From positions 1-64,000 of IMG/VR virus record IMGVR_UViG_2791355311_000001: 64,000 nucleotides of DNA; one strand, written 5' to 3'. This DNA is from a virus (taxonomy: Duplodnaviria > Caudoviricetes). Below the pieces are notes generated by a model, which was given only the letters and a program-made list of their open reading frames with translations, ran no database searches and was not told the origin of the DNA. Positions within the stretch are counted from its first letter, which is position 1; each line of letters opens with the position of its first letter. The position numbers and the translations under genes are program-made. This document shows positions 36,909-61,735 of this stretch, in pieces.

Positions 36909-37568
36909 TTAACTTCTTTTAGTCATTGTATAAGTGCTAGGTTTGTTCGGTGTTGCTCCTGCCTCAACCAACTTGCCAACCAAATCAAACAAATATCTAC
37001 TCATATCAGTCGGCACAACTAAGCCACCTTGCTGATTTCCTGTAATCAAATTCTCAATTATATTCGCACCTTTGATTAGTTTATTATCCTTAACTTGCTC
37101 TTTTATCGCTTTATGTTGTTCTTCTGCTAGTGTCTGCTCTTGTGCTAGTTTAGCTATTTGTGCATCTAGCATTAGACCTTGTTTATGCAAATTTGCAAGT
37201 TTATCGGGGCGTTGTTCTTGTGCCTCTTCATTCTTTATTTGAGTACCTTTTGTTTGTTCTTTTATGCCCTCAATGTTTGCCGTCAAAGACTCGCCTTGCT
37301 TTTTTAAATTATCTAAATTTGTATCAAAACTAAGTGACTGATTTGCTAGCTCTATCGATATTTGCATTGCTGTTGTAGTAAATGATGTTGTCATTACGGG
37401 CAACATTTCAGCAAAAACCCTTATTCTCTCGTTTGCACTTAATTGATATTCATTAAATTTTTCCTCAAAAAATGCTATAGTCTTATTGTATGGGGAGTTT
37501 TCTTCTACACTTAAAGCCAACACTTCTTTTAAAATTTTCTTGTATTCTTCGGAATAAGTACTCATCAT
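36909..37568 (-). CDS. Phage coiled-coil structural protein
   Basis: Paralogue of 12944-13609. Confidence 0.65.
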   Translation of the reverse strand: MMSTYSEEYKKILKEVLALSVEENSPYNKTIAFFEEKFNEYQLSANERIRVFAEMLPVMTTSFTTTAMQISIELANQSLSFDTNLDNLKKQGESLTANIEGIKEQTKGTQIKNEEAQEQRPDKLANLHKQGLMLDAQIAKLAQEQTLAEEQHKAIKEQVKDNKLIKGANIIENLITGNQQGGLVVPTDMSRYLFDLVGKLVEAGATPNKPSTYTMTKRS

Positions 37569-37843
37569 TTATCCTTTTCAAGTTTTCTAATTTTCAACTT
37601 TTGAATTGTTTGTTCTTGTTCTAAATTTCGCACAACACCCCTAAGCCCATTATCTTCTATGTTTGCAAGCCTAACATTTACGCTATCGTTTGCCACGCTT
37701 AGTTGTTCTATCCTTTGGTTTAGTCTATGCACTTCATTATTTAGCGCTGTTATTTGCTTTGCTTGTTGTTTTAAATTATTTATTTCATTATTTAGTGCTG
37801 TTATTTGTTCTTTTAATACTTCTATCTCATTATTTTCAGCCAT
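37565..37843 (-). CDS. Small coiled-coil phage protein
   Basis: Internal QITALNNE duplication. Paralogue of 13590-13844. Confidence 0.6.
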   Translation of the reverse strand: MAENNEIEVLKEQITALNNEINNLKQQAKQITALNNEVHRLNQRIEQLSVANDSVNVRLANIEDNGLRGVVRNLEQEQTIQKLKIRKLEKDK

Positions 37844-38180
37844 TTACGCGCCTTTCAAAGTGTGGGCAGTCCGTAAAGTTCTTATAGTTTCCACCCCATT
37901 TATTTATAGGGGTTAAACTTTCCCAAAAAGCTCCAATTTCTTTTAAATCATCTTTGTTGGTTAGCCAGTTACCTTCTTTAAATATAAACAAATCAATAGC
38001 ACACTTTATTAAGTGGTTTGAATTGTTTGTTTTGCTTTTTCCTGTTTTTAGATAAATTTCTTGTTGCTCTTTTGTTCTTAAAAGCTCTCCACCTCTTACA
38101 CTGTATCCGTTTGTATGTATATAGTGCAAAAGCTTTTCTACATCTTTCATAAATAATTCTTGTTCTTTTCCTAAACTCAT
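37836..38180 (-). CDS. Endolysin, M15 family peptidase
   Basis: RT.EQQ, S.H....AID, WGG.....D.PHFE. Confidence 0.85.
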   Translation of the reverse strand: MSLGKEQELFMKDVEKLLHYIHTNGYSVRGGELLRTKEQQEIYLKTGKSKTNNSNHLIKCAIDLFIFKEGNWLTNKDDLKEIGAFWESLTPINKWGGNYKNFTDCPHFERRVNG

Positions 38181-38183
38181 CTT

Positions 38184-38456
38184 TTATATTTTCCTTTGAA
38201 AAAAATTAAGTGCAAATTCTTTTAAACTAACTAACATATCACTACCACTAAATGCCCCAACACCACATATAGCAAGGCTTAGCTTTTCGTTAGTTGTAAA
38301 ATAATATGCTATCTCATATACTACATATGCAGAAAAACAACCATCAATTACTCTAAAAAATATATTTCTAAGGTTATGATTTTCCGCTTTGCTCCAGCTT
38401 ACAAAACTGCCTACTATTCCTACTATCAATATATAAATTATGTAAGTTTCTAACAT
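38184..38456 (-). CDS. Putative holin
   Basis: TM segments. YEIAYYFT..EKLSLA matches 14244-14558. Confidence 0.7.
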   Translation of the reverse strand: MLETYIIYILIVGIVGSFVSWSKAENHNLRNIFFRVIDGCFSAYVVYEIAYYFTTNEKLSLAICGVGAFSGSDMLVSLKEFALNFFQRKI

Positions 38457-38458
38457 AT

Positions 38459-38653
38459 TTATATCTTAAATATCATTAGCCATTTTGCAGGGCTAAGAAC
38501 AGCAGAGTATGTACCAACGCTTACTAGCCACGCTATAAATGTTGTGTTTTCATCTTCAAACATCACATCAAAAAAATAAAATGCCCCAATAGACACAGCT
38601 ATCGAGATTATGCCACCTATAAAGAGTGCTAATACCTTTTTCATTTTACGCAC
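38459..38653 (-). CDS. Two-TM membrane protein
   Basis: Two hydrophobic helices, in the lysis cassette. Confidence 0.55.
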   Translation of the reverse strand: MRKMKKVLALFIGGIISIAVSIGAFYFFDVMFEDENTTFIAWLVSVGTYSAVLSPAKWLMIFKI

Positions 38654-38847
38654 TCCAACAGTAGAGCTTCAACTTTTAAATAATACTCCATTAGCCCCTT
38701 TGCGTCCTCAATACTCTCATATTTAGGTTTGTTTGGAATCTCTGCTATACACTTAGTAGGCACTAGCACATCTTTATATACTATTTGTTTAGTAGCACTA
38801 GCACATCCACTAAATAGCATTAATGCTATTATTAAAATGCTTTTCAT
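38641..38847 (-). CDS. Lipoprotein, putative o-spanin
   Basis: Lipobox FSGC and YKDVLVPTKC. Confidence 0.65.
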   Translation of the reverse strand: MKSILIIALMLFSGCASATKQIVYKDVLVPTKCIAEIPNKPKYESIEDAKGLMEYYLKVEALLLECVK

Positions 38848-49266: not shown

Positions 49267-49393
49267 CTTTATACTCCTTAATTGTTTGTATTAAATTTAA
49301 AATGTGTTTTTGCTTTTCTATTGCTAAAATTCTTGTCCTATCATCATTTGATGAGTTGTTAAAAGTTGCTTGTGCTTCATATAGCAAACTCAT
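49253..49393 (-). CDS. 46-aa protein after the portal (start likely MSLLYEAQ)
   Basis: ATG at 49393 with GGAG upstream. Typical small gene between portal and scaffold. Confidence 0.45.
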   Translation of the reverse strand: MSLLYEAQATFNNSSNDDRTRILAIEKQKHILNLIQTIKEYKDDRE

Positions 49394-49577
49394 CAGTTGC
49401 TCCAATATCGCCCGTGTCAGGGGGTTGTAATATTGGGAGATTTCCTTGTTCGCTAATAGCTCCTGCTCCAATATCGCTAGTTCCTGCTCCCTTGTTAATA
49501 ACATCTTGTAAGCTCTCTTCCTTTCCTAGAAATTCATCAGTATTCTTAACACCATACAACGGTAAAAGCATTCTGAT
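49377..49577 (-). pseudogene. 3' fragment (66 codons) of the prophage 2 portal gene
   Basis: IRMLLPLYGVKN... continues in frame from ...ANGKI once 49584-60319 is removed. Confidence 0.88.
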
Positions 49578-49583
49578 AATCTT
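49578..49583. repeat. Left junction core AATCTT
   Basis: Direct repeat of 60314-60319. Confidence 0.88.
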
Positions 49584-49596
49584 GTATGATTCCCCT

Positions 49597-49820
49597 ACAA
49601 CATTTATAAAAGTTCTACATTCTCAAATCATACTTTTATAAATTGTTTAAACAATGTAAAATGATGATAACTCGCTGTTAATAATTCAAGTGCTTTGACA
49701 CTGTTGGGAAGATTTTAGCGATTATCATCGTTTTTGTTACTGATTAAAATCTTAGTAAGTTTAATTAAAACTCTACTGAATACAAGAAAAGTAACAAGAA
49801 CTAAATTAAATTTTACATTC
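49597..49820 (+). ncRNA. IS110 bridge RNA (5' hairpin, target-binding loop, donor-binding loop)
   Basis: Stems 49602-13/49632-43, 49653-62/49810-19, 49663-76/49717-29, 49732-41/49790-99. Guides match donor and target junctions. Confidence 0.85.
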
Positions 49821-49836
49821 AAAAAAGGATTCACAC

Positions 49837-50802
49837 ATGAAAAAATGTTATTTTTGTGGAGTTGATGTATCCAAAAATACTTTGGATTTATGTTTTTTAA
49901 CAAACAACGATAATATAAAACCTAAATATGAAAAATTACCAAACAATAAAGAAGTATTAAAAGCTTATTTTAATTCATTTATCAGTGATGATATACTTGT
50001 AGTATTAGAATATACAAACAATTATCATATAGCATTGCAAGAAGCATTAAGCGAATTAAAAATAAAATACTCAGTACTTAACCCAAACAAAACATCACAC
50101 TTTTTAAAACACCTAACCCATATAAAATCAGATTTAACAGATAGCTATGGACTTGCTTTATATTGTAAAATGTTTAAGTCCTATATAAACCCATCTAAAT
50201 ATAATAAAGAATATATATTAATTAAAAGCTATAACACTACAAGCGAGCTTTTATCAAAGATAACAACTCAATTAAAAAATCTAAAAAAATCACAATCTTT
50301 AACTTATGATAAAGACATAGAAATAATAGTTAAAGATTTAATAAAACATATAGATAGTATAAAAGAAAAACTTAACAATATAGCTTTTGAACTACTAAAG
50401 CAATACATACCACAAACCGAGCAAATTATAAAAGATAGCAAAGGAATAGGTAAAGATTTAGCTTTAAAACTATTCCCACAGCTACATTTTAACAGATTTA
50501 AAAATGCAAAAGAATTTATCTCTTTTATTGGCTTATCGCCTAGAATTTATGAATCGGGTACAAGTGTTAAAAAAACTAAAAAAATAAATAAAATTGGAAG
50601 CAGCACAATAAGAAAAGCTTTATTTATGTCTGCTTTATCTTGTATCAGATTTAACGATAAATTTAAAACAAGATATAACAGGTTAATAGATAGTGGAAAA
50701 AATAAAAAAGTTGCTATTGTTGCAGTAATGTGTGCGATAGTCCGATTTTTAAAAAGTTATTTTAAAAATGAAACAAATACCTATAAATTTAACACAGTTT
50801 AA
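49837..50802 (+). CDS. IS110-family (bridge) recombinase
   Basis: GVDVSK, LEYT, KSDLTDS (DEDD RuvC-like). GIG, FIGLSP...ESG (catalytic Ser region), KVAIVAVM. 321 aa, intact. Confidence 0.92.
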   Translation: MKKCYFCGVDVSKNTLDLCFLTNNDNIKPKYEKLPNNKEVLKAYFNSFISDDILVVLEYTNNYHIALQEALSELKIKYSVLNPNKTSHFLKHLTHIKSDLTDSYGLALYCKMFKSYINPSKYNKEYILIKSYNTTSELLSKITTQLKNLKKSQSLTYDKDIEIIVKDLIKHIDSIKEKLNNIAFELLKQYIPQTEQIIKDSKGIGKDLALKLFPQLHFNRFKNAKEFISFIGLSPRIYESGTSVKKTKKINKIGSSTIRKALFMSALSCIRFNDKFKTRYNRLIDSGKNKKVAIVAVMCAIVRFLKSYFKNETNTYKFNTV

Positions 50803-50962
50803 AATTTTAAAATCTGTGCTTAATAACTTTAATAACAAAAGGAGTATTACAAGACAAGATATATTAAACACTACAGACATATCAAAAGATAATTTAAGTA
50901 AAACAATTAAAAATGGTTATTTGTTAGAAAACAAATTAAACAAACATTTAAACAGTTTATAA
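50768..50962 (+). CDS. Small winged-HTH-like protein
   Basis: LTQFKILK...ITRQDILNTTDISKDNLSKTIK. Confidence 0.5.
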   Translation: MKQIPINLTQFKILKSVLNNFNNKRSITRQDILNTTDISKDNLSKTIKNGYLLENKLNKHLNSL

Positions 50963-50974
50963 AAGGATGACACA

Positions 50975-51415
50975 ATGGCAAAAGCTACAGAAGCTTTATT
51001 GAACACAGAAAAAGAGCAAGAGATAAAAAATATATGGAATGCTTTAAATCAGAATAACGACTTATTCGAACAAAAGATTAAAGTAACAGGTTTAAAACTT
51101 CAAGAAGGTAAGGAAAAAATAGATAAAGATGGTAACATCTTAACAGATGAGTTTGGAGAGCCGCAAAAATGGGATAACACTTATCGTTTAAGCTATGTAT
51201 CTTTAAATAGTGGTGGCGAACACTCAACAAGAATAACACAAGAACAATATTTAAATTTAAAACTTGATGAAGTATACATCGCTTCTGGCTCTATAAAATA
51301 CGTATTATACAAAGACGCATATAACACAACCCCGACCGTGGTATTTGAAAAATTTACCCCAGCTAGCGAGTTGTTTGTAACGGCAATGTTAAAACTTGAA
51401 GGTTTAAAAAAGTAG
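50975..51415 (+). CDS. Putative single-stranded DNA-binding protein
   Basis: Beta-rich 146 aa with OB-like pattern, upstream of the RCR Rep. Function inferred from context. Confidence 0.45.
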   Translation: MAKATEALLNTEKEQEIKNIWNALNQNNDLFEQKIKVTGLKLQEGKEKIDKDGNILTDEFGEPQKWDNTYRLSYVSLNSGGEHSTRITQEQYLNLKLDEVYIASGSIKYVLYKDAYNTTPTVVFEKFTPASELFVTAMLKLEGLKK

Positions 51416-51520
51416 CGCAAGCCCTGATTTTATAGGGCTTTAAACAAAAGTAAGTGCCTAGACTATCAGTACCTCACACCGTTACAAGCCCCTTTAGATA
51501 AAAAAAGAAAGGACAAAAAA

Positions 51521-51739
51521 ATGAAAACAACAATTTTTAATTCAGATATTGAAAACATATCATCTTTAGCCAATAATAATAAACATACAATGTCTATAGC
51601 CAAAGATATAGCAAATGTTATAAATGAAATAGATAGTTCTGTTTTTGTTAATAATTTAATCTTTCTCTTAAATGATGAGCAAAAAGAGCATTTTTTATAT
51701 CACTTAAAACACTCTATCATAGAAAGTAAAACAAAATGA
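51521..51739 (+). CDS. Hypothetical protein
   Basis: SD AAAGGA; ATGA overlap with rep. Confidence 0.55.
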   Translation: MKTTIFNSDIENISSLANNNKHTMSIAKDIANVINEIDSSVFVNNLIFLLNDEQKEHFLYHLKHSIIESKTK

Positions 51740-53184
51740 TTTTTGATAGCCTAAATTTTAACATTGTTCACCAAGGTATTGATACTTTAGTTTTAGGTAT
51801 TCGTTGCAATGATGAAGAATACTACAAAAATGAGTATTCTGAGTTTATATCAAAAATTTACGATTTAAAAAATCAAGCCCAATTAATAAATACTTACGGT
51901 GAAAAATATATCCTTGATGATTTAGGCTCATCATACGGTAATTTTAAAGTGTCATCTAAAGGCTTAGGTAATTATTTCGGTTTCTTTGAAAACGATGATA
52001 TATTTTGCTTAGTAGGTGATACAAGCTTTAAAAATAAACAAATGTATCATTTAAAAATACAATTTAGAAGTATATTTTTACTTAAATACGGTCATAAAGA
52101 ATGTTATAACCGTGTAAAAGCATTTTTAAATGATATATTCAAAGATAAATTTGATGTTGAAATCTCAAGGGTTGATATTTGTACCGATGTTGCTGGTATA
52201 AAATACACACCGCAGGATTTTTTAAAATTTAGAAGTTTAAAAAGAACAACAAATTACACTCATTCAACCTATAAGCATGATAGCACACTTATAAAAGATG
52301 ATGAAACAGAAACAAATCTTATAAACTTAGAACAAATGACAATTAACAATTTTATGCAATATAACAGATTTGAAGGTATCGCATTTGGCAAATCTCCATG
52401 TATGTTTAGAATATATGACAAAGTTAATCAGGTCATTAAAAAACGTATAAGTAATTTAATATTTACTAAGTGGGAGCTTTACGGATATGATATAAACTCT
52501 AAAAGCAATGTTTATCGCCATGAAATTGAACTTGGTCGCCCCTTTGTTAAAAAACTTATGGGCGATAATGTAACTGATGAAATTTCTTTTTTATTTGATA
52601 ATTTAGGGAAATTTTGGGCTTATGGTTTAAAAATTTGTAAGTGGTATGATTTAACAGATGATGAAGTTAAGAGATTAACAGAAAGCAACATTAAATCAGA
52701 TAGCAAGCGACTTATATATTTTCGTTGTGAAGCTGACACAAACCGCTTGAATTTTTGGGATATGATTAATAAATTTGATGAAGAAAACAACGAAGCTTTA
52801 TATCTTCATAAGTTTATTAATACAAGAGATATTAAAAAAGTAAAGATAGCTTTTAAATCTTTTATATCTTCAGTTTATAGTAATTTAGGTTCATTTGATG
52901 ATAATTTCACCTATGTAATCAATGAAGTTAAAAAAGACCTTGCTATGCAAAAAATATCACTTCATGAATACGGTTTATCTAAAATGTGCGGTAGCTTTAA
53001 TAAAAACGAGCAAATTATTAAAGGTGAAAAATTAGATGTTATAAATCCATTATATCCATCACTTTATCGCTCACTTGATGACTTATTACAAGCTTTACAG
53101 GATATTAGAAATGATGATTATAAAAAAGATATTGAAAAATCTTTAACGGTTTTAAAAAATGATGGATACATTTATGAATATTAA
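51736..53184 (+). CDS. Rolling-circle replication initiator, Rep_trans-like
   Basis: GIDTL, ISRVDICTD, FG.....FRIYDK (catalytic Tyr), RHEIEL. Confidence 0.8.
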   Translation: MIFDSLNFNIVHQGIDTLVLGIRCNDEEYYKNEYSEFISKIYDLKNQAQLINTYGEKYILDDLGSSYGNFKVSSKGLGNYFGFFENDDIFCLVGDTSFKNKQMYHLKIQFRSIFLLKYGHKECYNRVKAFLNDIFKDKFDVEISRVDICTDVAGIKYTPQDFLKFRSLKRTTNYTHSTYKHDSTLIKDDETETNLINLEQMTINNFMQYNRFEGIAFGKSPCMFRIYDKVNQVIKKRISNLIFTKWELYGYDINSKSNVYRHEIELGRPFVKKLMGDNVTDEISFLFDNLGKFWAYGLKICKWYDLTDDEVKRLTESNIKSDSKRLIYFRCEADTNRLNFWDMINKFDEENNEALYLHKFINTRDIKKVKIAFKSFISSVYSNLGSFDDNFTYVINEVKKDLAMQKISLHEYGLSKMCGSFNKNEQIIKGEKLDVINPLYPSLYRSLDDLLQALQDIRNDDYKKDIEKSLTVLKNDGYIYEY

Positions 53185-53476
53185 CAATAATTTATACATA
53201 GCATTAGTTGGTTATCTAATTGAAGAAAATAAAGAAAATAAATATATTTGTATTGATTTAAGGCATTATAGTGTTATAAAATCTTTTGCAAAGCAACATG
53301 GATTTATTAAATATAATAGCTTTGTAGGGAGTTTAAAACGTTATCGTGAATTACAAGAAAAATTAGCAAAAGATTTTGTTATTGCTCCTATTCGTAAGTT
53401 TTTAAGTATTAAAAATTATACCTTTAAAATTAGGGGCGATTATCTATTTATAGTTAAACAATTTACATTATTTTAG
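53159..53476 (+). CDS. Hypothetical protein
   Basis: ORF overlapping the end of rep. Confidence 0.5.
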   Translation: MMDTFMNINNNLYIALVGYLIEENKENKYICIDLRHYSVIKSFAKQHGFIKYNSFVGSLKRYRELQEKLAKDFVIAPIRKFLSIKNYTFKIRGDYLFIVKQFTLF

Positions 53477-53491
53477 AAAGGTTTTTTTATT

Positions 53492-53869
53492 TTGATAAAA
53501 ATTAATAGTATTTCTAGTTTTTTAATTAAATTTTTAAAAGATTATTATCCATATAAAAAAAATATTTCTTTTAAAATTGAAGAAATTAATAGACATTTTT
53601 TAATTATTGATTTTTATTTTAATGAAAGCTATGTAAAAAATGATTTTAGTAATTATATAACTTTTACACATTATTTTATTTTAGATGATAGTTATCTTGT
53701 CTTTCATTTTTTTATTTTTAAAAAAGCAAAAATTCAATCATCATTTTTACAAAATTTTATAATTAATCTTAAAAATGATTTTATTTTTTCTTTCAATTTA
53801 AGAGATTATGTTTTTAATTATGATGAAAATTTAACAAAATACAAAGGAGTTATTTATGCAAATAAATAA
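53492..53869 (+). CDS. Hypothetical protein (very AT-rich)
   Basis: 125-aa ORF with TTG start that fills the operon gap. Confidence 0.4.
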   Translation: MIKINSISSFLIKFLKDYYPYKKNISFKIEEINRHFLIIDFYFNESYVKNDFSNYITFTHYFILDDSYLVFHFFIFKKAKIQSSFLQNFIINLKNDFIFSFNLRDYVFNYDENLTKYKGVIYANK

Positions 53870-54182
53870 AGAAGATATCGCAAAATTTAGCGATAAGGCA
53901 AAAGGTGTTTTCGATGGACTTTCAACAATTACAAGCGTATTTTTTCCACAAATTACTGCGCCAGTTACTGCTGTTAGTAAGGTATTTTCTAAAATATCAG
54001 AACTTGATGACACAGAAGCAGAAAACATCGCAGGTTTATCTGCTACAGCTTTTAAACTTGATGAAATGATTAAACAAGTTGAGAAAGGCGAAAAGATAGA
54101 CATTGAACACTTAAAAGAACTTTCTGAAAACATTAAAAGTATAGATAGCTCTTTAGATAAATTTTACAAGGTTATTTCATGA
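53856..54182 (+). CDS. Hypothetical helical protein, possibly virion
   Basis: SD AAGGAG; amphipathic helices. Confidence 0.6.
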   Translation: MQINKEDIAKFSDKAKGVFDGLSTITSVFFPQITAPVTAVSKVFSKISELDDTEAENIAGLSATAFKLDEMIKQVEKGEKIDIEHLKELSENIKSIDSSLDKFYKVIS

Positions 54183-54844
54183 TACAATCTGTTACAAATC
54201 TGAATCAATTTTTTGAAGAGCCTGCGGATGGTTATTATCTTTTTAATGGAAATATCTATAAAAAAATTGGAGAGATTTCATTATATATTGATAATAATAC
54301 TTATGAAAATATATCTATGCTTAACACGAAATATCGAATAATATTTGTTAAGACTTCTCTTATTACCGCAGTTGATTTAAAAGACAATAAGGACTTTATT
54401 GAATCAACTTTTTTTGATTCTGAGGGTTTTCCTTCTCGTGTCCCTGCGATTTCTTCTTCTGGCTTATCTTTGCCTTTGCTGACTCCGGTAAAATTAAAAG
54501 GTTTTGATTTTTGGTTTTGTATAGCATCTTCTTTTATGCTATACATTGACAATAATACAGAAATATTATGTTATGTTCCAGAAACTTCTTTATTAGATTG
54601 TTTTGGTAAACTTTATAATCTTTCTGTTGCTTGTCCTGCTTCGCTAATTACTGAATATAAAACTGGTGAATTATTTCCTTATTGGTTCTTTTTTAATATT
54701 TATTCTTCTTTTGGTTTGCCATTTAAAAAAGACCATTTCTTAAAAGTTCTTGCCGATAAGAAAGATTTTTTGAGTTTTGAAGAATTTAAATCTTATGATG
54801 AAGAATATTATTCTCTTTATTCTTGGGCTGATTATTTTGAATGA
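54179..54844 (+). CDS. Hypothetical protein
   Basis: ATGA overlap; aromatic, beta-rich. Confidence 0.55.
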   Translation: MIQSVTNLNQFFEEPADGYYLFNGNIYKKIGEISLYIDNNTYENISMLNTKYRIIFVKTSLITAVDLKDNKDFIESTFFDSEGFPSRVPAISSSGLSLPLLTPVKLKGFDFWFCIASSFMLYIDNNTEILCYVPETSLLDCFGKLYNLSVACPASLITEYKTGELFPYWFFFNIYSSFGLPFKKDHFLKVLADKKDFLSFEEFKSYDEEYYSLYSWADYFE

Positions 54845-54902
54845 TTTTATATTTTTTATACAAAATGTTATAATCTATAAAAAAAAGAAAGGATAAAAAA
54901 AA

Positions 54903-56039
54903 ATGCCTCTTCCTGTTGTTGGTATTATTGCTAATCTTCTCCGAACCGGTGCTATATCTGCTTTTGATATTGCTAGTGCTGGTGCTGGTTCTTATGCTTT
55001 AACAAAAACTTTAAAAGATACTGATTTAAGTTCTCCACAAAACACTGGTGATTATATAAATCCTTTAGGTTTTTCAATTGCTCGTAATATTGTTGAGCGT
55101 ATAAATAATTATTCTCGTTCAAGTTCCTCAACAACTGATTTTAATCTTTCAGAAGCTCCTTCAATACCAAAGCCTGAAGATTATATTAACAAGCTCAGGT
55201 CAATTCATGATAAGGATTATACTATTCCCGCACCATCAGCTCCGCAAACTCCTAAGAACAATTTATCTTCTTCTGCTTCGTTTGCTAGTGGTAGCTCTAA
55301 TATTAATGCTGGTAATTCAACAAATCTTATCAGTGCTATTAATTCACAAAATGCTATACTTGCGGAAATTGCTTCAGCATTAAATTCTTTTGTAGCTTTA
55401 CAAGCAACAAAATCTCTTAATATTGCAGTGCCTACACAACAAGCAAGCAAAAAAGGTGGTTTTACACAAACTATATCTACACCTTTACCAAATTTTAAAC
55501 CAAAACCTGAGCTTAACTCAAAATCACTTGAAAAAAGTTTGGATTTAATAGCAAATTTATATAAAAAGTCTCTTGAAAATCCTAGTAAATCTGTAGATTT
55601 AACAGAAGTTACCAAAGCTTTAAATAATATAGCTAAAATAAAACCTAGCATAAAAATGACAATGCCAAAAGACTTATCTATAGCTTTCCCTGAATCAATG
55701 GCTGTAACTTTACCAGCTGATTACGTTGCAAATCAGACAGCTATTAAGGAAGCTTTATCTGGAACCTTTGAAATACACAAAGAACAAGCCGAATACATGA
55801 AAACACCAGCAACAGTTAAAGACCTCGATGGTAACACCATCGCTAAAGCTACTCCAAGAGAGATGTCGCTTACATACGAAGCAACTAGAGCAAGAACTGC
55901 AACAGATGAAAACAATTTTGAACTTGATGAAAATGATATAAATGCTTTATATCCTGCTTTACCGGATATATCTCAATTATTTAAATTTAAACTTGTCGGC
56001 GAAGTTACAAAGGATTATTTAAATGAAACAAATAAATAA
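54903..56039 (+). CDS. Putative DNA-pilot/minor virion protein
   Basis: Gly/Ala-rich hydrophobic N-terminus (MPLPVVGII...AGAGSYAL), Ser/Pro linkers, strong T at third codon positions. Confidence 0.5.
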   Translation: MPLPVVGIIANLLRTGAISAFDIASAGAGSYALTKTLKDTDLSSPQNTGDYINPLGFSIARNIVERINNYSRSSSSTTDFNLSEAPSIPKPEDYINKLRSIHDKDYTIPAPSAPQTPKNNLSSSASFASGSSNINAGNSTNLISAINSQNAILAEIASALNSFVALQATKSLNIAVPTQQASKKGGFTQTISTPLPNFKPKPELNSKSLEKSLDLIANLYKKSLENPSKSVDLTEVTKALNNIAKIKPSIKMTMPKDLSIAFPESMAVTLPADYVANQTAIKEALSGTFEIHKEQAEYMKTPATVKDLDGNTIAKATPREMSLTYEATRARTATDENNFELDENDINALYPALPDISQLFKFKLVGEVTKDYLNETNK

Positions 56040-56220
56040 AAATGATTTAAAAAATAATGATGTCAATAACAACGATGATAGTAATATATTGATTGATATT
56101 ATCGTTATTCTTGTTATTATTGGTATTGCTTACTATTTTATAAGCTCTTTCAAACTTGTTGGAGATGTTTCCCGTGAATATTTGGATGAGCAAAAGGTTA
56201 TAAATAATGTCAGAAACTAA
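56023..56220 (+). CDS. Small single-TM protein
   Basis: ILIDIIVILVIIGIAYYFI. Confidence 0.55.
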   Translation: MKQINKNDLKNNDVNNNDDSNILIDIIVILVIIGIAYYFISSFKLVGDVSREYLDEQKVINNVRN

Positions 56221-56968
56221 GCAAAGTAACACAGCTCGCATTATTGGTCTTGGTGTTGATGAAATGTTTGAAGATTTAACATATTCGGTTGCTTATAACG
56301 AAGTTCTAACAAGACTTAAAAATAGTGGTATGCCTGATGGAATTTTAAACGACGCTATTAATAGTGGTATTAGTATAATGTTTTCGGCTGCTTTAATGAC
56401 TTATATCCAAAAACAAGAAGCTATTATCCATAAAATTGTTGGTATTGCTGGCTCTTTGCTTATTGCTACTCTTACGCCTGTTCGTGCCGGTGCTAAAAAT
56501 CTTTTTAAAAAATTTTCCAAAGGTCGTAAGCTTGGCATGTTTAGTAAAATTTTTGGCGATTCGGATGCTAATAATATATCTTATGGACAAGTTATTGCAA
56601 CGAGTGCTAATTCTGCTTTTAATGCTCATCAATCTTCAAGTAATGTTTTTCAAGCTGGCAGTGTTGCAATGCAACAACGGGAGCATATTCTAAACACTAA
56701 AAATCATCAGATGAATTATGCTAAAGCTAAAGTTGATAGCATAAATCAAACATTATTATTTAAACTATTTACATCTAAATTTACAAGTCAAGACAAAGAA
56801 ATTTTACGTAAAATTACTGGCTCTTCTGAGATAAACATAGAAAATATTAACAAAGTTGCTTCTTTTATGTTTGTAACAGACAGCAACGGCGATATTACAG
56901 GTCTAGCTGAACAATTTACAACTATGTTAAATGGTTTGGGGTATTTTCATAATAAGGGTAAAAAATGA
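56207..56968 (+). CDS. Putative membrane-associated virion protein
   Basis: Two hydrophobic segments followed by a basic patch. Confidence 0.55.
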   Translation: MSETKQSNTARIIGLGVDEMFEDLTYSVAYNEVLTRLKNSGMPDGILNDAINSGISIMFSAALMTYIQKQEAIIHKIVGIAGSLLIATLTPVRAGAKNLFKKFSKGRKLGMFSKIFGDSDANNISYGQVIATSANSAFNAHQSSSNVFQAGSVAMQQREHILNTKNHQMNYAKAKVDSINQTLLFKLFTSKFTSQDKEILRKITGSSEINIENINKVASFMFVTDSNGDITGLAEQFTTMLNGLGYFHNKGKK

Positions 56969-57126
56969 GTATGAGTGAACAAGAATGTAAAGAAGCTGTT
57001 GAAAAAGAAATTTTATTGTTAAGTACAATTAGTAAAAATATTGAAATATTAAATTCCAATATCCAAAAACTTTTACTTGCACTTACTGGTGAAACTGGCG
57101 ATTCTACAAAAAGTCAAGGTAATTAA
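56965..57126 (+). CDS. 53-aa coiled-coil peptide MSMSEQECKE... (not in the ORF track)
   Basis: ATGA overlap; fills the gap exactly. Confidence 0.5.
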   Translation: MSMSEQECKEAVEKEILLLSTISKNIEILNSNIQKLLLALTGETGDSTKSQGN

Positions 57127-57128
57127 AC

Positions 57129-57857
57129 ATGATTGCTCCTTTAGTTTGTTGTTGTAAAAAAGAAAAAAGGGAATTTTATCTTTCTGTTTTTCAACTTATA
57201 ATTGAACTTCATGCAAGTTCAACTTATTATGATGGTGATTTAGCAAATTTGTTTGGTATTCACGTATTTCCAATATTTCCTCTAGAATTTCAAATTAATC
57301 ACAATCTTCCTAATTTCTTTTTTCGTAAAGATATTTCTTTTCCTGAAAATCATTTACCCGGATATGACTATGAAGCACCTTTATTTTTGACTGGGTTTTT
57401 TAAAAATGCTCCTGAAACTTTTTTTTATGCTGATGATTACAGCGAAAAGCCTATTCGTATTCCTGATCCTAATTTAAGTGTATCTTCAATTAACGAAATT
57501 TACTTGGCTATATTAAATTATTATGATAAAAAATCTTTTGATATAAACAACTATACCCCCGATGAATTTTCTTTTATTTTTACAAAAAAACATTCTTTTA
57601 ACGGTTTTGATTTGTTTGGCGGCGATACAGTAAAAACAAAGCACTATAATTATAATTCTTTTTCAAGTTGTTTTAATAATCTTAAATCTCTTTATGCTGA
57701 TTTTATTTCTTCGCTTGATTTTGCTAAAAAATCAAATAATTTTTATGAAGATTTTACAGGTATTCATATAGGTAAAGAATTTACTGAAATTAGTCCTTAC
57801 TCTTTTTCTCACATTTCCAGTATTGAATTATCTATAGCACTACCAATAATAAAATAA
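57129..57857 (+). CDS. Hypothetical protein, possibly receptor-binding
   Basis: 242 aa, aromatic-rich, N-terminal CCC. Confidence 0.5.
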   Translation: MIAPLVCCCKKEKREFYLSVFQLIIELHASSTYYDGDLANLFGIHVFPIFPLEFQINHNLPNFFFRKDISFPENHLPGYDYEAPLFLTGFFKNAPETFFYADDYSEKPIRIPDPNLSVSSINEIYLAILNYYDKKSFDINNYTPDEFSFIFTKKHSFNGFDLFGGDTVKTKHYNYNSFSSCFNNLKSLYADFISSLDFAKKSNNFYEDFTGIHIGKEFTEISPYSFSHISSIELSIALPIIK

Positions 57858-57872
57858 AAAAGGAGTTAATCA

Positions 57873-58229
57873 ATGCCCGTATATAAAGTAACCCAGCAAC
57901 AAGGAAATCGTGTTATAACTTCAACATACGAAGCTAAAAGCTCTACATCTTTATTACAATTTTTACAAGAAGTATCAACCGCTAAAGTTAAGTATATATA
58001 TCGTGTAGAGTATGAAGATGAAGAAACGACACCGCCAAACGATGACTTTAATTATCACAAACAATTTAAAGCATTTGCAAAAAATAGCAATAATGCTTCT
58101 AAACAAGTTTTAATACATAATGTTAAAACAACTAAGAATGAGCAAGAATTAACAAATGCAATAATTACACATCTTAGTGTAGGAGAACAAGCAATTAAAT
58201 CTGTGGCTTGTTCTTTGTTTATGCACTAA
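57873..58229 (+). CDS. ~115-aa paralogue A, candidate structural protein
   Basis: SD AAGGAG. Pattern shared with 58967-59320 and 59342-59680. Confidence 0.6.
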   Translation: MPVYKVTQQQGNRVITSTYEAKSSTSLLQFLQEVSTAKVKYIYRVEYEDEETTPPNDDFNYHKQFKAFAKNSNNASKQVLIHNVKTTKNEQELTNAIITHLSVGEQAIKSVACSLFMH

Positions 58230-58282
58230 ATTTTTAACCTTTCTTATAATCTAACCGCTTTAATTTTGAGCCTTGTCTATTT

Positions 58283-58328
58283 AAGCCTTGCGGTCGCTCT
58301 GCGACCTGCTGGCTTGATCCTTTTTTTT
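58283..58328 (+). terminator. GC-rich hairpin followed by a T-run
   Basis: AAGCC..GGTCGC-TCT-GCGACC..GGCTT then T8. Confidence 0.5.
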
Positions 58329-58560
58329 CTCATTCTCTTACTTTTTCTTACTCTCTTTTTGCCATTTTCTATCTTCTTGAAAAACTATAATCACATCTTA
58401 TTAAATTCTTTATAAAAATACTCCCCAAACTCTTGTATTTTTTATTTTTATATTATTTTGCTTACTTGTTTTGTTTTTCTTTGATTCTATAGCTTGTTTG
58501 ATATCTTTATACAGCTTTTTAACTTAACCCTTATATTTTTTTATTTATTTCCTAATAAAT

Positions 58561-58706
58561 AATATTTTTCATTCTTGCATAAATACCCAATATTATTTTA
58601 TTTTTGCTTGTCAAGACTGCGAAGCACACCGCTAGGTGCTTGGTCTTTACAAGCTTTCAAAAATAAAATAATAAACTCCAATTTATGCCAAGAATGATAA
58701 AATATT
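58561..58706. repeat. 146-bp imperfect inverted repeat (candidate sso or packaging signal)
   Basis: Includes a 16-bp perfect arm TATTATTTTATTTTTG/CAAAAATAAAATAATA, GCTTGTCAAGAC/GTCTTTACAAGC and AAGCAC/GTGCTT. Confidence 0.8.
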
Positions 58707-58966
58707 TCTTATATCTGTTTGTTTGTCTTTTTTTTTAATCAACTAAAATTTTGTAATAAAAACATATCCATCTGTGTTAATTTCATAATTTTACATTTTT
58801 AAAAGTTGCTTAAAAACTTTTAAACGCCCCTTTATAACGTTTAATAATCATGTGTTGCTTCAACTTTTTATATTTATCTTTATAATTTGAATTGTTTTAA
58901 AAACGTTTTTTAACAAATATTTTAAGTCTATATGACACAAATAAAACAAGAAAAAAAAGGAAACAC

Positions 58967-59320
58967 ATGCTAAAACAATACATCCAAGGTTTAAATCCTA
59001 AGACATTGTCTTTTAGTGATAATAGTGATGAGGATTCTCTGTTACCACTTCTTGCTGGAAAAATTGAAAAATATGAGCAAACTGCTACTGGTGGAGCTGT
59101 ATTAAATGAACTTCCCACTACATTAAATCGTAAAGAATTTATCGTTTCTAAAGATAGTCCTACTGGTAGAATTTCTTCAATAGTTAGAATACCGCACGTT
59201 AAAGAAACTTTTTACTTTAACGAGCTTAATGCTTCTGTTAAAGGTAAATTTGATTCATCTTTTACTAGCGATGTTAAATGTGATGAAGTTAAATTACGTT
59301 TCGACTCTCTAGCAAAATAA
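58967..59320 (+). CDS. ~115-aa paralogue B, candidate structural protein
   Basis: RIPHVK.T and VKCDEV motifs. Confidence 0.6.
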   Translation: MLKQYIQGLNPKTLSFSDNSDEDSLLPLLAGKIEKYEQTATGGAVLNELPTTLNRKEFIVSKDSPTGRISSIVRIPHVKETFYFNELNASVKGKFDSSFTSDVKCDEVKLRFDSLAK

Positions 59321-59341
59321 TTAAGATAAAAGGATAAAAAA

Positions 59342-59680
59342 ATGGCTAAAACATTAATAAGAAACAAGATAGCTAGTAAAACTTTTGGTATGGCTTTGCC
59401 TGCTAGTGCTGAAACTGCAAAAGCTTTTGCTGATGTTGCTCTTGAGGGTGAATATGCAATATTTGAAAGAAAAAGTGAGCAAGGTAATGATACCGAAGCC
59501 CAAGTTATAGAATATGTTGTTACTGGTAAGAGTGAGGCAGGTTTTAAAACAACATTTAGTTTTTATGCAAATGCTAACAAAACAGAAGTTGATATTAAAA
59601 CTGCTCTTTTAGAAAAAACTTTCAACGGTGTTAAGTTTGATGAAATTTATATAATTTCGGCTAAATATGTTAAAGGTTAA
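59342..59680 (+). CDS. ~115-aa paralogue C, candidate major structural protein
   Basis: Strong SD AAAGGA, VKFDEI motif, T3-biased codons. Confidence 0.6.
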   Translation: MAKTLIRNKIASKTFGMALPASAETAKAFADVALEGEYAIFERKSEQGNDTEAQVIEYVVTGKSEAGFKTTFSFYANANKTEVDIKTALLEKTFNGVKFDEIYIISAKYVKG

Positions 59681-59691
59681 TAAACATTAAT

Positions 59692-59922
59692 ATGCAATCT
59701 TTAACAAATGAATATTTAGAGTTAGTGCTAACTGCACTAGCTCTTTTCTTATCTGGTCTCAATTGGTTTATATCTCAAAAATTATCAAGTTTTTCTTATA
59801 GACTTGATAAGATAGAAACATCTTATACTGACACTTATCAGATAAAAGCAGATATACAGCTATTAAAAGAAAAAATAGATTTCATTATTGAGATGTGTAA
59901 AGATAATAATAAAAAGGTTTAA
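59692..59922 (+). CDS. Putative holin (one TM plus coiled coil)
   Basis: LELVLTALALFLSGLNWFI, directly upstream of the endolysin. Confidence 0.55.
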   Translation: MQSLTNEYLELVLTALALFLSGLNWFISQKLSSFSYRLDKIETSYTDTYQIKADIQLLKEKIDFIIEMCKDNNKKV

Positions 59923-59924
59923 CT

Positions 59925-60266
59925 ATGCCGTTAGGAAAAGAACAAGAAGATTTCACTAAAGATTTAAATAAATTACTTACATATTTACATAATAATAACT
60001 ATAATGTAAGATGTGGTGAACTATTTAGAACACAAGAACAACAAGAAATTTACTATCAAAGAAAACTAACTAAAACAAAAAATAGCTATCATACAAAAAA
60101 ATTAGCTATTGATTTATTTATATTCAAAAACGATACATGGTTAAAAACCAAAGAGCAATTACAACCAATAGGGGATTATTGGGAGAGCTTAAACAACATA
60201 AACAAATGGGGTGGTAATTATAACAGTTTTATAGACTGTGTACATTTTGAAAGAAGAGCAAAATAA
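59925..60266 (+). CDS. Endolysin, M15 family peptidase
   Basis: S.H....AID and WGG...D..HFE. 70/113 identities to 37836-38180 by manual count. Confidence 0.85.
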   Translation: MPLGKEQEDFTKDLNKLLTYLHNNNYNVRCGELFRTQEQQEIYYQRKLTKTKNSYHTKKLAIDLFIFKNDTWLKTKEQLQPIGDYWESLNNINKWGGNYNSFIDCVHFERRAK

Positions 60267-60297
60267 GCTAAAATAAAAAACTACAATTTAAATACTC

Positions 60298-60319
60298 TTG
60301 ACATTTATCTTAAAATCTT
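60298..60319 (+). promoter_or_regulatory. Right end: -35 box TTGACA plus junction core AATCTT
   Basis: Joins TATGAT (49585-49590) at 17-bp spacing only in the circular form. Confidence 0.85.
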
Positions 60320-61735
60320 CCCATTTGCTTTTTTAAGTTGCATTGCACCTTCCATATCTTGAAGTTGCAAACAAACGCCAAGTTGATTACCAATGGCTCC
60401 CATTGCTTCCATTAGCCCCTGTTTTTGCACTTCTTTATTTAAAGCACCAATTCCCGTATTTAAACTAACTGCAAAAGATGGTATTTCATCTCTGCTATAT
60501 CCCGCAAAGAAATCAGCGTTGCCATATTTCCAAACCAATTTTGCAAGTCTTTCAAATATAGGCTCAAAAAATGTTTCGTTAAAAGTTCTAATATAACCTT
60601 GTATCCTAACGCTACCTTCATTCGCCATAATGCTAGCCATCGTTGCAGTTTCTTTTCTGTATGTACTTGCTCCATTTTGTTGAGGGCTTACACCACTTGC
60701 TTCGCTCATTTCTTGGTCTATTAAACTTACTGCTAGTTGTGCCACATTTAGATTAGGCGCAGGTAGCACTTGTAAGGCTGTTGGCTCATTTGTAAATATT
60801 GGCAAGCCTATCGTTTCTATTTGCTCCCTTGTAACATTTGCACTTGTGTTAACTACTATCTTTGGCTTTAATGCCATATTGATACCATCTATAATTGAGT
60901 TTCTTGTAATGTTTATCTCGTCTTGTAAAGGTAAAATACTAGCAAGAGGTGGCTCACCATACACACAAACAAAGTCTTGCTCGTTAAAATCTCTAACCTG
61001 TGGTGTCATATACCCAAAGATAAAGGGTTGTCCATCTTTTAGCTTAATGCCTTCTCTTAAAAGTGTTTCGTTAAATAAGGTTGAAACTTCCCATTCCCCA
61101 TTGATTTGTTCGTAAATATCATATACTTCAAAACGCTCATAAGGCTTAAATTCAATATCATCAAGGCTTAATAACACTTGTTCTTTTTTAAATATCTTTC
61201 TTTTTGCAAGTGCTAACAAATCATCAGCCGTTAAGATTAGTTTATTGACTATATAACGCACATCTCTTGGGCTTTTAGCATTTGGGTCAAAGTATATCTC
61301 ATCTAATTCTATCTCTTCAATAATAGGCATATCACCAGACCAATATACCTTAGCCACGCTTGTTCCTAAGAACGGTATTTTTTGAAAGATTGGTGCAAAT
61401 GTGTTATAAAGCTTTAGCATATCGGTGTAAATATCCAAAGCCTCTTGCCATTTGTCTATAACTTCTTGCTTAGAATTGATATAAGTTTGAAGTTTCGCAA
61501 AAGTATCATTGTTAAAATACGTTTCGCTTAAACTATCACTTATACGCTTAGCCTTTGCGTTTATCTTTGGTATATAAATGCGTGATTTGTTCCTTTTTGC
61601 AAGTGATGTTATCTGCTCTTGTTCTAGATTAAGCAAGTAAGCACTATTTAATTTATCAAAGCTAGGCTTATACTTTTCAAAGCCGTCCTTCGCATTTGAT
61701 AACAACTCTTGCAAATAAACTACATCTTTTCCCAT
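60314..61735 (-). pseudogene. 5' part (474 codons) of the prophage 2 portal gene, interrupted
   Basis: KSRIYIP, FDPNA, CVYGE, LQDEIN.TRN. Stops two codons into the inserted element. Confidence 0.88.

Follow-up and report, generated by a model that had tools for sequence, protein, structure and literature searches.

An element of probable rolling-circle replicon type, apparently integrated by an RNA-guided IS110-family recombinase, in Campylobacter and its relatives

What kind of mobile element carries an IS110-family recombinase gene at one end and keeps the right end belonging to that recombinase almost 10 kb away, behind a long series of other genes? This question is raised by a stretch of viral DNA of 64,000 nucleotides (positions 1 to 64,000 of the IMG/VR record IMGVR_UViG_2791355311_000001; hereafter the window), in which two copies of AATCTT, at 49578-83 and 60314-19, enclose such a block. 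A first-pass annotation had proposed that the whole ~10.7-kb cassette is the unit of recombination, that the IS110 right end lies ~9.5 kb downstream of the recombinase gene, and that the block is a rolling-circle, virus-like element using a bridge recombinase as its integrase. The genome around the window comprises 1.76 Mb with 30.5% GC, and homologues of the element proteins are named Campylobacter in their source records. Comparison with these relatives leads us to regard the element, with good though not full confidence, as an RNA-guided, IS110-integrated rolling-circle replicon.

A six-base repeat alone would be a trivial boundary; the boundaries can be taken as real because the termini recur among relatives, because empty sites exist and because removal of the element restores a portal reading frame. 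By family comparison, the unit occupies window positions 49583-60318 (10,736 bp) and is low in GC (0.19-0.34 within the element vs 0.32-0.40 in the flanks), with its long open reading frames (ORFs) all on the plus strand. The earlier placement at 49584-60319 has equal length and is shifted one base to the right, and a flanking T makes the two placements indistinguishable. A DNA search of 61 related genomes recovered a co-linear block, 63-78% identical, in eight other species, spanning the left non-coding end through the last 32 bases of the element. The termini common to the relatives begin on the left with TGTATGAT and finish on the right with TTGAC[AT]T[CT]TATCTTAAAATCT. An alignment of 28 homologues of the element's replication protein (Rep) was used to fetch one IMG/VR locus and 39 metagenome loci. 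Among the 49 loci checked, the left terminus was found in 34 and the right terminus in 18, with four more beyond those 49, and an IS110 homologue lies upstream of Rep in 40; in the other nine it is not visible because the contigs begin less than 750 nt before Rep. Element size ranges from 9,748 to 12,641 bp across the examined loci.

The mode of entry can be read from a single chromosomal site at 10 loci, seven of them empty and three occupied. The empty-site sequence ...CTTCATAAATT|TAAGAAGC... is present in seven species, and in three the element sits exactly between its halves; insertion therefore adds the element and one 2-nt core and duplicates nothing else. The core at the left junction is the target's NT (TT, CT or AT) and that at the right junction is the donor's CT. 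We took the core as CT, and TT one base rightward is equally compatible by sequence. Across these 10 loci, insertion at the core dinucleotide is thus conservative and free of target-site duplication, as in the IS110 group. In the window, in-silico removal of the 10,736 bp lengthens the interrupted portal ORF from 476 to 540 amino acids (aa). The related prophage of genome G019 has an uninterrupted portal of 545 aa with the same 82-nt spacing across the site, and beyond residue 472 the restored tail matches the G019 tail at 27 of 66 identical residues. In the 1.76-Mb genome, the right-end motif and the donor-loop motif are both single-copy, and the ORF after the recombinase gene overlaps its 3' end by 35 nt; there is therefore no IS right end directly after the recombinase gene. 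Judged from these sequences, the unit spans TGTATGAT to ...AAAATCT, and the exchange is conservative at the 2-nt core (donor CT, target NT). Both the proposed unit and the distant right end therefore hold. We rejected two simpler views, namely an ordinary IS110 beside an unrelated island, since the right-end motif is genome-unique and kept at the far end in relatives, and a cargo belonging to the surrounding prophage, since elsewhere the cargo is found at chromosomal sites and taking it out makes the portal frame whole again. The features that define the integration module are as follows.

49581-49582, no strand: core dinucleotide CT at the left junction (target-derived copy), from the junction and empty-site comparison
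49583-49836, plus strand: non-coding left end (LE), starting TGTATGAT, with a -10 box TATGAT at 49585-49590 and the bridge-RNA gene, from RNA folding
49663-49729, plus strand: predicted bridge-RNA segment with left and right guides (first loop), from alignment, covariation and guide-flank match statistics
49730-49801, plus strand: predicted donor-binding loop, with its 5' loop at 49742-49753 and its 3' loop at 49778-49789, from invariant columns in 19 sequences and compensatory outer-stem pairs
49837-50802, plus strand: intact IS110-family bridge recombinase, 321 aa, from Pfam and homology to ISCro4 and IS621
60267-60318, plus strand: right end (RE), with a -35 box TTGACA at 60299-60304, then the left donor arm and core ...TATCTTAAAATCT; the motif is genome-unique

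The recombinase matches PF01548 (4.4e-13) and PF02371 (3.4e-20), and its residues 3-304 align with those of ISCro4 (9t56, 1.3e-19) and IS621 (8wt6, 9.7e-17). It has an N-terminal DEDD RuvC-like domain and a C-terminal Tnp domain in which the YESG(S/T)S stretch is aligned; the roles of its catalytic residues are those that we presume from IS621. Upstream of the gene, the 254-nt left end folds at -55.6 kcal/mol (z -6.1) into a 5' hairpin and two stem-loops, each with an internal-loop pair around a small hairpin, which is the two-loop structured RNA of the IS110 group. In an alignment of 19 non-redundant left ends, compensatory changes occur in 12 of 19 consensus pairs; for example, the inner hairpin of the first loop has GC/CG/UA at 8/6/5 and the outer stem of the second loop has AU/GC at 10/9. 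The second loop is invariant, its 5' side being the right-end terminus TTAAAATCTT and its 3' side being complementary to CTTGTAT, that is, the core and the first left-end bases. On this alignment, we identify the second loop as the putative donor-binding loop, matching both element ends across the core; in the genus g23, the donor loop likewise matches the element ends, though the end sequences differ. Apart from AGATT on the 3' side, the first loop varies; AGATT complements AATCT, the donor left arm and core, an arrangement that we take to be the 'handshake' of IS621. The earlier identification of a bridge-recombinase homologue with a two-loop RNA upstream is thus borne out by homology, folding and covariation. 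Its predicted RE-LE circle junction, too, would indeed create TTGACA-17 nt-TATGAT in the window and in the printed relatives, some relatives having TTGACT as the -35 box. A general promoter and terminator scan in this AT-rich DNA was uninformative (82 sites vs 68 +/- 8 expected); an Rfam scan at E<=1 gave only two chance-level matches, and no tRNA is present in the window.

If the first loop directs integration, its guides should vary with the insertion sites, a check that the first-pass annotation had itself suggested. We scored the 10-nt left guide against the flanks; whether a pair was own or foreign, three registers were permitted. Own pairs reached a mean of 8.8/10, with at least 9 in 18 of 23 distinct events, vs a mean of 5.7/10 for the 434 cross pairs, none of which reached 9. 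The right guide gave an own mean of 4.9/7 (13 events) vs a cross mean of 2.2/7 (132 pairs). By these scores, the variable target loop matches the flanks of each insertion, and insertion sites do vary with the guides. Individual loci illustrate the same correspondence. Between L038 and L048, a one-base difference in the guide is mirrored by the same base difference in the flank. L043 and L044 have a common guide and a common 11-12-mer in differing contexts, and genome G092 carries two copies with a single guide at two sites that have only CTTCATAAATT (an 11-mer) in common. In G325, a genome of another genus, two copies agree to 99.97% over 11,883 bp of cargo but to only 80% in the LE and recombinase region, and the 10-nt left guide of each copy is identical to its own flank; the two loci (L094 and L095) imply that the integration module or the cargo was recently exchanged between the copies. 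For G006, an empty-site pattern built from the guide matched once, as did its control. Many insertions lie in repeated intergenic sequence beside differing housekeeping genes, for example leuA, topA, ftsW and murC. The immediate left flank ...CTCGCAAGAATTGACTACTAAAATT is common to L012, L015, L016, L023, L025-L027, L029, L032 and L036, and the attachment site flanked by CTCGCAAGAATTGACTACTAAAATT is, from its sequence, apparently a REP-like multi-copy intergenic repeat.

The genes between the recombinase and the right end are as constant as the termini. ORF clustering of 10 elements yielded 11 core families in the fixed order IS110-F1-F2/OB-Rep-F4-F5-F6-F7-F8-F9-M15, with 37-68% protein identity across the compared elements; eight of the 11 have no recognisable fold or family, and two slots carry unrelated proteins of 180-320 aa. 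Among 142 genomes of the genus, IS110 homologues are present in 33 and Rep in 30, and Rep lies 0.6-1.4 kb beyond the gene at 30 of the 32 non-fragment IS110 places. The two places without Rep are a 1,167-bp contig and a mini element of ~2 kb in G121 (L064, about 1950-3982), which is organised as LE-IS110-F1-M15-RE with intact termini and a bridge-RNA-like left end; we read the latter as an internal deletion because it retains cargo genes from both ends. Apart from this 2-kb deletion form and fragments, the 142 genomes hold no plain IS-sized relative, so that homologous IS110 copies ending right after the recombinase gene, a finding that would have spoken against the cassette as a unit, were not seen in the genomes searched. 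Identity matrices of IS110 and of five cargo proteins correlate at r 0.91-0.98 (36 pairs, which are not independent), and by this comparison the recombinase and cargo have diverged together as one evolving unit.

The relation between recombinase and cargo becomes clearer outside the genus. When 301 genomes of the order were searched with a profile, Rep relatives turned up in 19 of them, spread over 12 genera, and eight distant loci were fetched. Three of these have an IS110 homologue (34-35% identity) before Rep and F6-F9 behind it, and the integrase type was examined in six of the eight. The other three of those six (L088, L090 and L091) carry a PF00589 tyrosine integrase in place of IS110. 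All three have a homologous Rep, accompanied by F6-F9 in L088, by F7 only in L090 and by F6 only in L091, and these sisters measure ~11-12 kb with a single gene orientation. L088 further encodes a tail-collar fibre domain (PF07484, 1.8e-17; phrog_523, 2.3e-27), a LydA holin and a CII-like protein (E 2.7e-4, below Pfam's own cut-off), and L091 encodes a collagen/Gp10_C fibre; both loci adjoin a DHBP-synthase/GTP-cyclohydrolase II gene. Since the cargo core occurs with a tyrosine integrase in these sisters, we regard the cargo as an apparently independent phage-like replicon with a swappable integrase. The sister elements are, on their gene content, the strongest evidence for an exchanged integrase module as opposed to DNA passively collected by an IS.

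The cargo of the window copy is arranged as follows.

50768-50962, plus strand: F1, 64 aa, overlapping the recombinase 3' end; in 10 of 10 elements
50975-51415, plus strand: OB-fold protein (F2), 146 aa, candidate single-stranded DNA (ssDNA)-binding protein; AlphaFold 2 (AF2) pLDDT 78
51736-53184, plus strand: putative rolling-circle initiator with Rep_trans fold (F3), 482 aa; AF2 pLDDT 74.5 and Foldseek
53159-54844, plus strand: first variable slot, with F4 (105 aa, core), a unique 125-aa ORF, F15 (108 aa) and a unique 221-aa ORF; from clustering
54903-56968, plus strand: F5 (378 aa), F24 (65 aa) and F6 (253 aa), conserved core without assigned function
56965-57857, plus strand: second variable slot, with a 53-aa ORF and a 242-aa ORFan; from clustering
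57873-58229, plus strand: F7, 118 aa; no other cargo protein is as well conserved (identity 53-68% in the genus, ~42% in other genera)
58230-58966, no strand: intergenic region of 737 bp with a 137-nt imperfect hairpin at 58565-58701, candidate origin or packaging signal; from DNA folding
58967-59680, plus strand: F8 (117 aa) and F9 (112 aa), a conserved pair also kept in other genera
59692-59922, plus strand: F16, 76 aa, with a single hydrophobic segment; candidate for a holin or a spanin; in five of 10 compared elements
59925-60266, plus strand: M15 peptidase, phage-type endolysin (F10); PF13539, 3.9e-9, and phrog_465 endolysin, 2.5e-12

The first-pass annotation had read a Rep_trans initiator, a single-stranded DNA-binding protein (SSB) and lysis genes from this cargo, and each of these assignments stands in part. 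For the initiator, the support comes from the predicted fold and not from the Pfam profile. When the Rep model was compared with the PDB by Foldseek, the top six matches were RepDE (4cwc/4cwe) and RepSTK1 (4cij), with E values of 2.8e-7 to 8.1e-6, a probability of 1.0 and TM scores by target of 0.48-0.56, TBP-like folds coming next in the list; in the viral library BFVD, the named matches in the top dozen were metagenomic Inoviridae Rep/G2P. One source annotates a homologue as 'Replication initiation factor'. Single-sequence and profile searches of Rep gave no match in Pfam, PHROGs or PDB sequences. The residues invariant among the 28 homologues are R145, D147, D151 and F224-R225-x-Y227-x-K229, which we take to fit the motifs of the Rep_trans family. 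The 482-aa protein is therefore best described, from its model, as a putative rolling-circle initiator with a Rep_trans fold, with a catalytic tyrosine and a nick site that are likewise putative. It resembles RepDE, RepSTK1 and the pII/RstA-type Reps of inoviruses in predicted fold, and it differs from them in its ~11-13% identity, its length (482 aa vs ~270 for the RepDE/RepSTK1 type) and an extra helical C-terminal half.

For the putative SSB, modelling supports an OB fold and nothing beyond it. In VIA, the best Z scores (9.3-8.6) belong to DUF chains and the baculovirus SSB LEF-3, followed by SSB, RPA and PriB chains, which number in the dozens and score Z 6.5-7.7, and Foldseek E values are only 0.027 or higher; the model is compatible with a candidate SSB. 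The 737-bp intergenic region contains a 137-nt hairpin with a DNA fold of -38.6 kcal/mol (z -10.9), and long hairpins are found at the equivalent gap in all eight relatives examined, their sequence not being conserved. This gap, treated here as non-coding, also includes a 49-aa ORF with two strongly hydrophobic segments (window 58266-58415), and the equivalent gap of the relatives holds two other small ORF families (F13 and F14).

Of the lysis genes, the endolysin is secure in its family and the holin is only a candidate. The 19 element ORFs were scanned by Pfam and PHROGs, and PHROGs recognised the endolysin only. The M15 protein matches six PHROG families annotated as endolysin, is conserved at 55-63% among relatives, has H..D and H residues that we take to be the zinc-ligand motif, and has a homologue in the holin-endolysin-spanin cassette of the surrounding prophage. 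The 76-aa protein with its single hydrophobic segment has no significant family match. As proposed earlier, no tyrosine or serine integrase was found among the 19 ORFs.

Much of the remaining cargo resisted assignment. F1 has only sub-threshold matches of MarR/HU type (E 0.02), and the proteins of the first slot have no Pfam or PHROG matches. F5, a low-complexity protein with a conserved C-terminus, and F24 and F6, each with one hydrophobic segment, have no matches in Pfam, PHROGs, the PDB or the Atlas; set beside the small coat protein and the pIII-like adsorption protein of filamentous phages, F24 and F5 show no detectable similarity to coat proteins, and F6 is conserved in other genera. The 242-aa protein of the second slot found only itself among 5.8 billion proteins. 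The cargo ORFans, searched singly or as alignments against Pfam, PHROGs and PDB sequences, gave nothing significant, and F6 and F7 had no usable neighbour in the ESM Atlas. Conjugation or coupling genes, a terminase small subunit, and capsid-size or packaging-interference genes were not recognised.

These observations can be accommodated in the following scheme. The element would be the integrated form of a small (~10.7 kb) temperate phage-like replicon, whose integration and excision are carried out by an IS110-group bridge recombinase and its bridge RNA. The recombinase would excise the element as a double-stranded DNA circle, and the RE-LE junction would then form a sigma-70 promoter (TTGACA-17 nt-TATGAT) that may drive expression of the bridge RNA and the recombinase, and perhaps of all the co-oriented genes. 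The Rep_trans-fold initiator would nick an origin that probably lies within the 737-bp intergenic region with its hairpins, and the circle would be replicated through ssDNA coated by the OB-fold protein. The M15 endolysin and the small membrane protein may release progeny or aid transfer, and re-integration would follow wherever the target loop directs it, in most cases into a repeated intergenic sequence. The window copy would have landed at a partly matching portal site, cutting off ~65 C-terminal codons that precise excision would restore. As a bolder and distinctly tentative extension, the family might constitute a new group of small lytic viruses that infect Campylobacter and its relatives and belong to neither the tailed nor the filamentous type, with genomes of ~10-12 kb, rolling-circle replication, RNA-programmed lysogeny and a circle-junction promoter that acts as an excision sensor by switching on the whole single-orientation genome. 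If this were true, lineages would have swapped a tyrosine integrase for a bridge recombinase and could retarget themselves by mutating ~15 nt of the guide loop.

Several observations weigh against this scheme. The Rep protein has no relative among 72,556 PLSDB plasmids or 50,697 INPHARED phage records, and only one IMG/VR contig belongs to the family, so that a free episomal or virion form is unrecorded. A 21-mer of the RE-LE junction had 0 matches in viral contigs and one in genome contigs; the latter, in a metagenome-assembled genome of Lachnospiraceae, was rejected as a chance match, having no -35 box and no element proteins. No contig that contains the right end continues into the left end. 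Of the two signs of mobility, circle and empty site, which the first-pass annotation had asked for, the empty site is therefore seen in seven species and the circle junction was not found in the contig searches. None of the sequencing runs matched half of the sampled words, no RNA run was among those that matched, and three contig-only runs led to short fragments with no junctions, a result that is uninformative either way. Among the element proteins, neither a capsid nor a portal protein, a terminase or a morphogenesis ATPase could be recognised, and all six frames lack a Walker A motif. The PF02486 (Rep_trans) profile has no match to the 482-aa protein, even at E<=10. The guide evidence is entirely comparative, and the register in which the left guide stands to the crossover shifts from event to event (-1, 0 or +1), that of the right guide being fixed. 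The left guide of the window copy, finally, matches its present site at only 6/10, its right guide complement CT+TCCCA being exactly the right flank (5/5 and core); since the left-guide fit is poor and the site lies in a prophage portal gene, we read this copy as off-target-like, and from its sequence it looks like an off-target insertion. Among side observations on the contigs, G006 contig C5 (L017) and the metagenome contig L058 end within 2-10 nt of both element termini, an indication that in those samples the assembler encountered it in differing settings, either as multiple copies or as sites both occupied and empty.

How such a replicon might live is a separate matter, on which the evidence divides between four possibilities; the probabilities that we attach to them do not add up to one. 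An autonomous small virus, in which the ORFan core (F5-F9 and the small membrane proteins) builds its own non-tailed, non-filamentous particle, the variable slots encode receptor-binding proteins and progeny are released by lysis, is a serious possibility that we nevertheless hold at less than an even chance. In its favour, eleven core families are syntenic in the genus, F6-F9 persist in other genera and two slots are hypervariable; the tail-collar fibre, collagen/Gp10_C fibre and LydA holin of the sisters, the conserved M15 endolysin, the long intergenic hairpins and the resemblance of the Rep fold to ssDNA phage Reps point in the same direction. It has to be set against the failure to find a capsid fold, a search in which only two cargo proteins were folded and the Atlas models of F6 and F7 were poor (pLDDT 0.44 and 0.49), against the lack of a packaging or assembly ATPase, and against the lack of a free circular contig in IMG/VR or among the metagenome loci. 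That no capsid gene was recognised also speaks for a phage satellite or hitch-hiker, which would replicate itself and be packaged or transferred by a tailed helper whose host range or timing its fibre-like and lysis genes alter. The window copy, which interrupts the portal gene of a tailed prophage much as do the helper-embedded satellites described in the available passages of PMC10111431, and whose endolysin is 72% identical in nucleotides to that of this prophage, fits such a lifestyle. The insertions scanned at nine other loci, however, lie beside housekeeping genes and not in prophages, the poor guide fit makes the prophage location look accidental, and the terminase small subunit, capsid-size and interference genes of satellites were not recognised; we therefore think a satellite unlikely, and we rejected helper embedding as a general rule.

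An integrative rolling-circle plasmid or mobilisable element without a virion, in which the Rep_trans protein serves as plasmid initiator or MOBT-type relaxase and the M15 enzyme opens the wall for transfer, strikes us as doubtful to a similar degree. The closest solved Rep folds are indeed those of plasmid initiators, structural proteins were not recognised, and expanded IS110 loci that keep plasmid replication determinants are described in the accessible part of a preprint (Hu et al. 2026, 10.64898/2026.08.14.744561). Yet PLSDB holds no relative and conjugation and coupling genes were not recognised, the sisters carry phage-type genes (CII-like regulator, tail-collar fibre, holin and phage integrase), and the endolysin is of the same type as that in the lysis cassette of the local tailed prophage. 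The same part of that preprint describes a size continuum of cargo-bearing IS110 elements, which, together with the 2-kb LE-IS110-F1-M15-RE version in G121, could be taken to mean that an ordinary 1.5-kb IS110 accreted passive cargo stepwise. This we consider very improbable: the same 11-gene order, at the protein identities given above, is found in 10 of 10 elements, recombinase and cargo diverge in step, the cargo core occurs without IS110 and with tyrosine integrases in other genera, and the mini element is best read as an internal deletion that kept cargo genes from both ends.

Our preferred reading, that of an RNA-guided, IS110-integrated rolling-circle replicon, places the element between several known systems. 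IS621 has a CT core with a changeable first base and rebuilds a promoter across its RE-LE junction (Durrant et al. 2024, PMC11208160, in the part available). Like IS621 and ISCro4, the element has a homologous full-length DEDD and Ser recombinase, and its left end encodes, ahead of the gene, a two-loop RNA whose target loop varies and whose donor loop is conserved; like IS621, it uses a CT core that tolerates changes in the first base, duplicates no target sequence, has an RE -35 box and an LE -10 box that would join on circularisation, and favours repeated intergenic sequences. Unlike both, it has its recombinase gene separated from the right end by ~9.5 kb of phage-like genes that are conserved and co-evolve, and the register of its left guide varies within the family. 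With 10,736 bp and at least 19 ORFs it is far from a compact IS of ~1.5 kb, and we therefore regard it as a replicon using IS machinery rather than as an insertion sequence in the strict sense.

Integration of phages by IS110-family enzymes is itself in print, and to this extent the earlier description of the element as a different class was overstated with respect to the integration principle. The filamentous Nf/MDA phages of Neisseria integrate by an IS110-family transposase (PMC7058167, citing Kawai 2005), as do the Thermus filamentous phages phiOH16, Zuza8 and Zuza27 (PMC11437467). According to the available passages of these papers, such inoviruses resemble the element in being rolling-circle replicons with an IS110-family gene and the Rep side at opposite ends, in integrating into repeats with a CT motif and in having no tyrosine or serine integrase; the same passages do not tie site choice in the Nf and Thermus phages to a guide RNA. 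By those accounts, inoviruses have coat proteins, a Zot/pI ATPase and lysis-free release, whereas the element has an endolysin and an unrelated ORFan core. As the first-pass annotation had stated, the element proteins gave no Pfam match to the Zot/pI morphogenesis ATPase, and with the absence of a Walker A motif in six frames we rejected an inoviral identity. Cargo-bearing IS110 elements of up to ~100 kb, some with replication genes, have likewise been reported, with ~9-kb circles recovered experimentally (Hu et al. 2026, in the part available). Like those loci, the element has IS110 ends that enclose far more than a recombinase; as far as the same part of the preprint describes them, they grew by progressive accretion and are mostly plasmid-derived and resistance-enriched, whereas the element is a stable, syntenic, phage-like genome without resistance genes. 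Growth by accretion does not fit the fixed gene order, the co-divergence of recombinase and cargo or the lack of a PLSDB match. The word Campylobacter occurs 0 times in the main text of the preprint as available; literature searches brought up no paper on the Campylobacter element family, and the supplementary tables of Hu et al. 2026 might list such loci.

What is new, then, is a non-inoviral, lysis-equipped and mostly ORFan gene set under bridge-recombinase integration, its presence in about one-fifth of the species genomes of a single genus, with an extension to other genera, and the swap between tyrosine integrase and bridge recombinase together with an unusually clear natural covariation of guide and site. 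The address on the chromosome would here be written in a short RNA loop for a whole self-replicating phage-like genome and not for an insertion sequence. Natural reprogramming appears to be visible in near-identical cargos with differing guides and sites, in one guide used at several sites that share an 11-mer, and in the tyrosine integrases found elsewhere. The family may thus offer a clean natural system for studying how bridge recombinases are recruited as integrases, and it is relevant to the opening of new attachment sites by guide changes and to the tolerance of mismatch and register in vivo. The conserved ORFan families may hide a new virion or transfer apparatus, in a genus with important gut and oral bacteria.

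The window copy also affects its host prophage, whose portal gene is divided as follows.

60305-61735, minus strand: 5' part of an SU10-type portal gene, 476 codons, with its stop now inside the RE; PF23899, 4.9e-16
49377-49582, minus strand: severed 3' part of the portal gene, ~65 codons, from in-frame restoration to 540 aa

The portal DNA has no match among phage records. When the ORFs flanking the element were scanned at nine other loci, all proved chromosomal, and only the window copy lies in a prophage. The disruption of the portal gene would be reversible, and it could act as a switch on prophage viability. In this the copy resembles the helper-embedded HE-PICI, which, in the available passages of PMC10111431, are inserted in a prophage late gene that excision restores; unlike them, the element occupies a prophage site only as an exception, and its predicted integrase is RNA-guided and not of their late-gene-targeting tyrosine integrase clade. 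The lysis cassette of the surrounding tailed prophage (window 36909-38847, minus strand) comprises two small membrane proteins, an M15 endolysin at 37836-38180, a coiled-coil protein and a lipoprotein-like ORF, and is of the holin-endolysin-spanin type. The similarity of the two endolysin genes suggests gene exchange or a common pool.

Some further loci deserve mention. In G263 (L092, 5424-19977), an IS110-F2-Rep-...-F9 unit is followed by a second unit, F2-Rep-...-F6, without a recombinase and with a period of ~9.07 kb, an arrangement reminiscent of tandem rolling-circle prophage arrays. The distant IS110-bearing relative L087 (G334) encodes, just past F9 (2867-3592), a protein with an Mrr-type restriction endonuclease domain, possibly a defence moron. 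Decayed remnants, consisting of the left end and a stop-riddled 5' third of IS110, are present at G000:C1:573092-573650 (outside the window), in G019 (L020 and L021) and in G131. Further short left-end-like matches occur at several genome sites, and three of these copies are identical.

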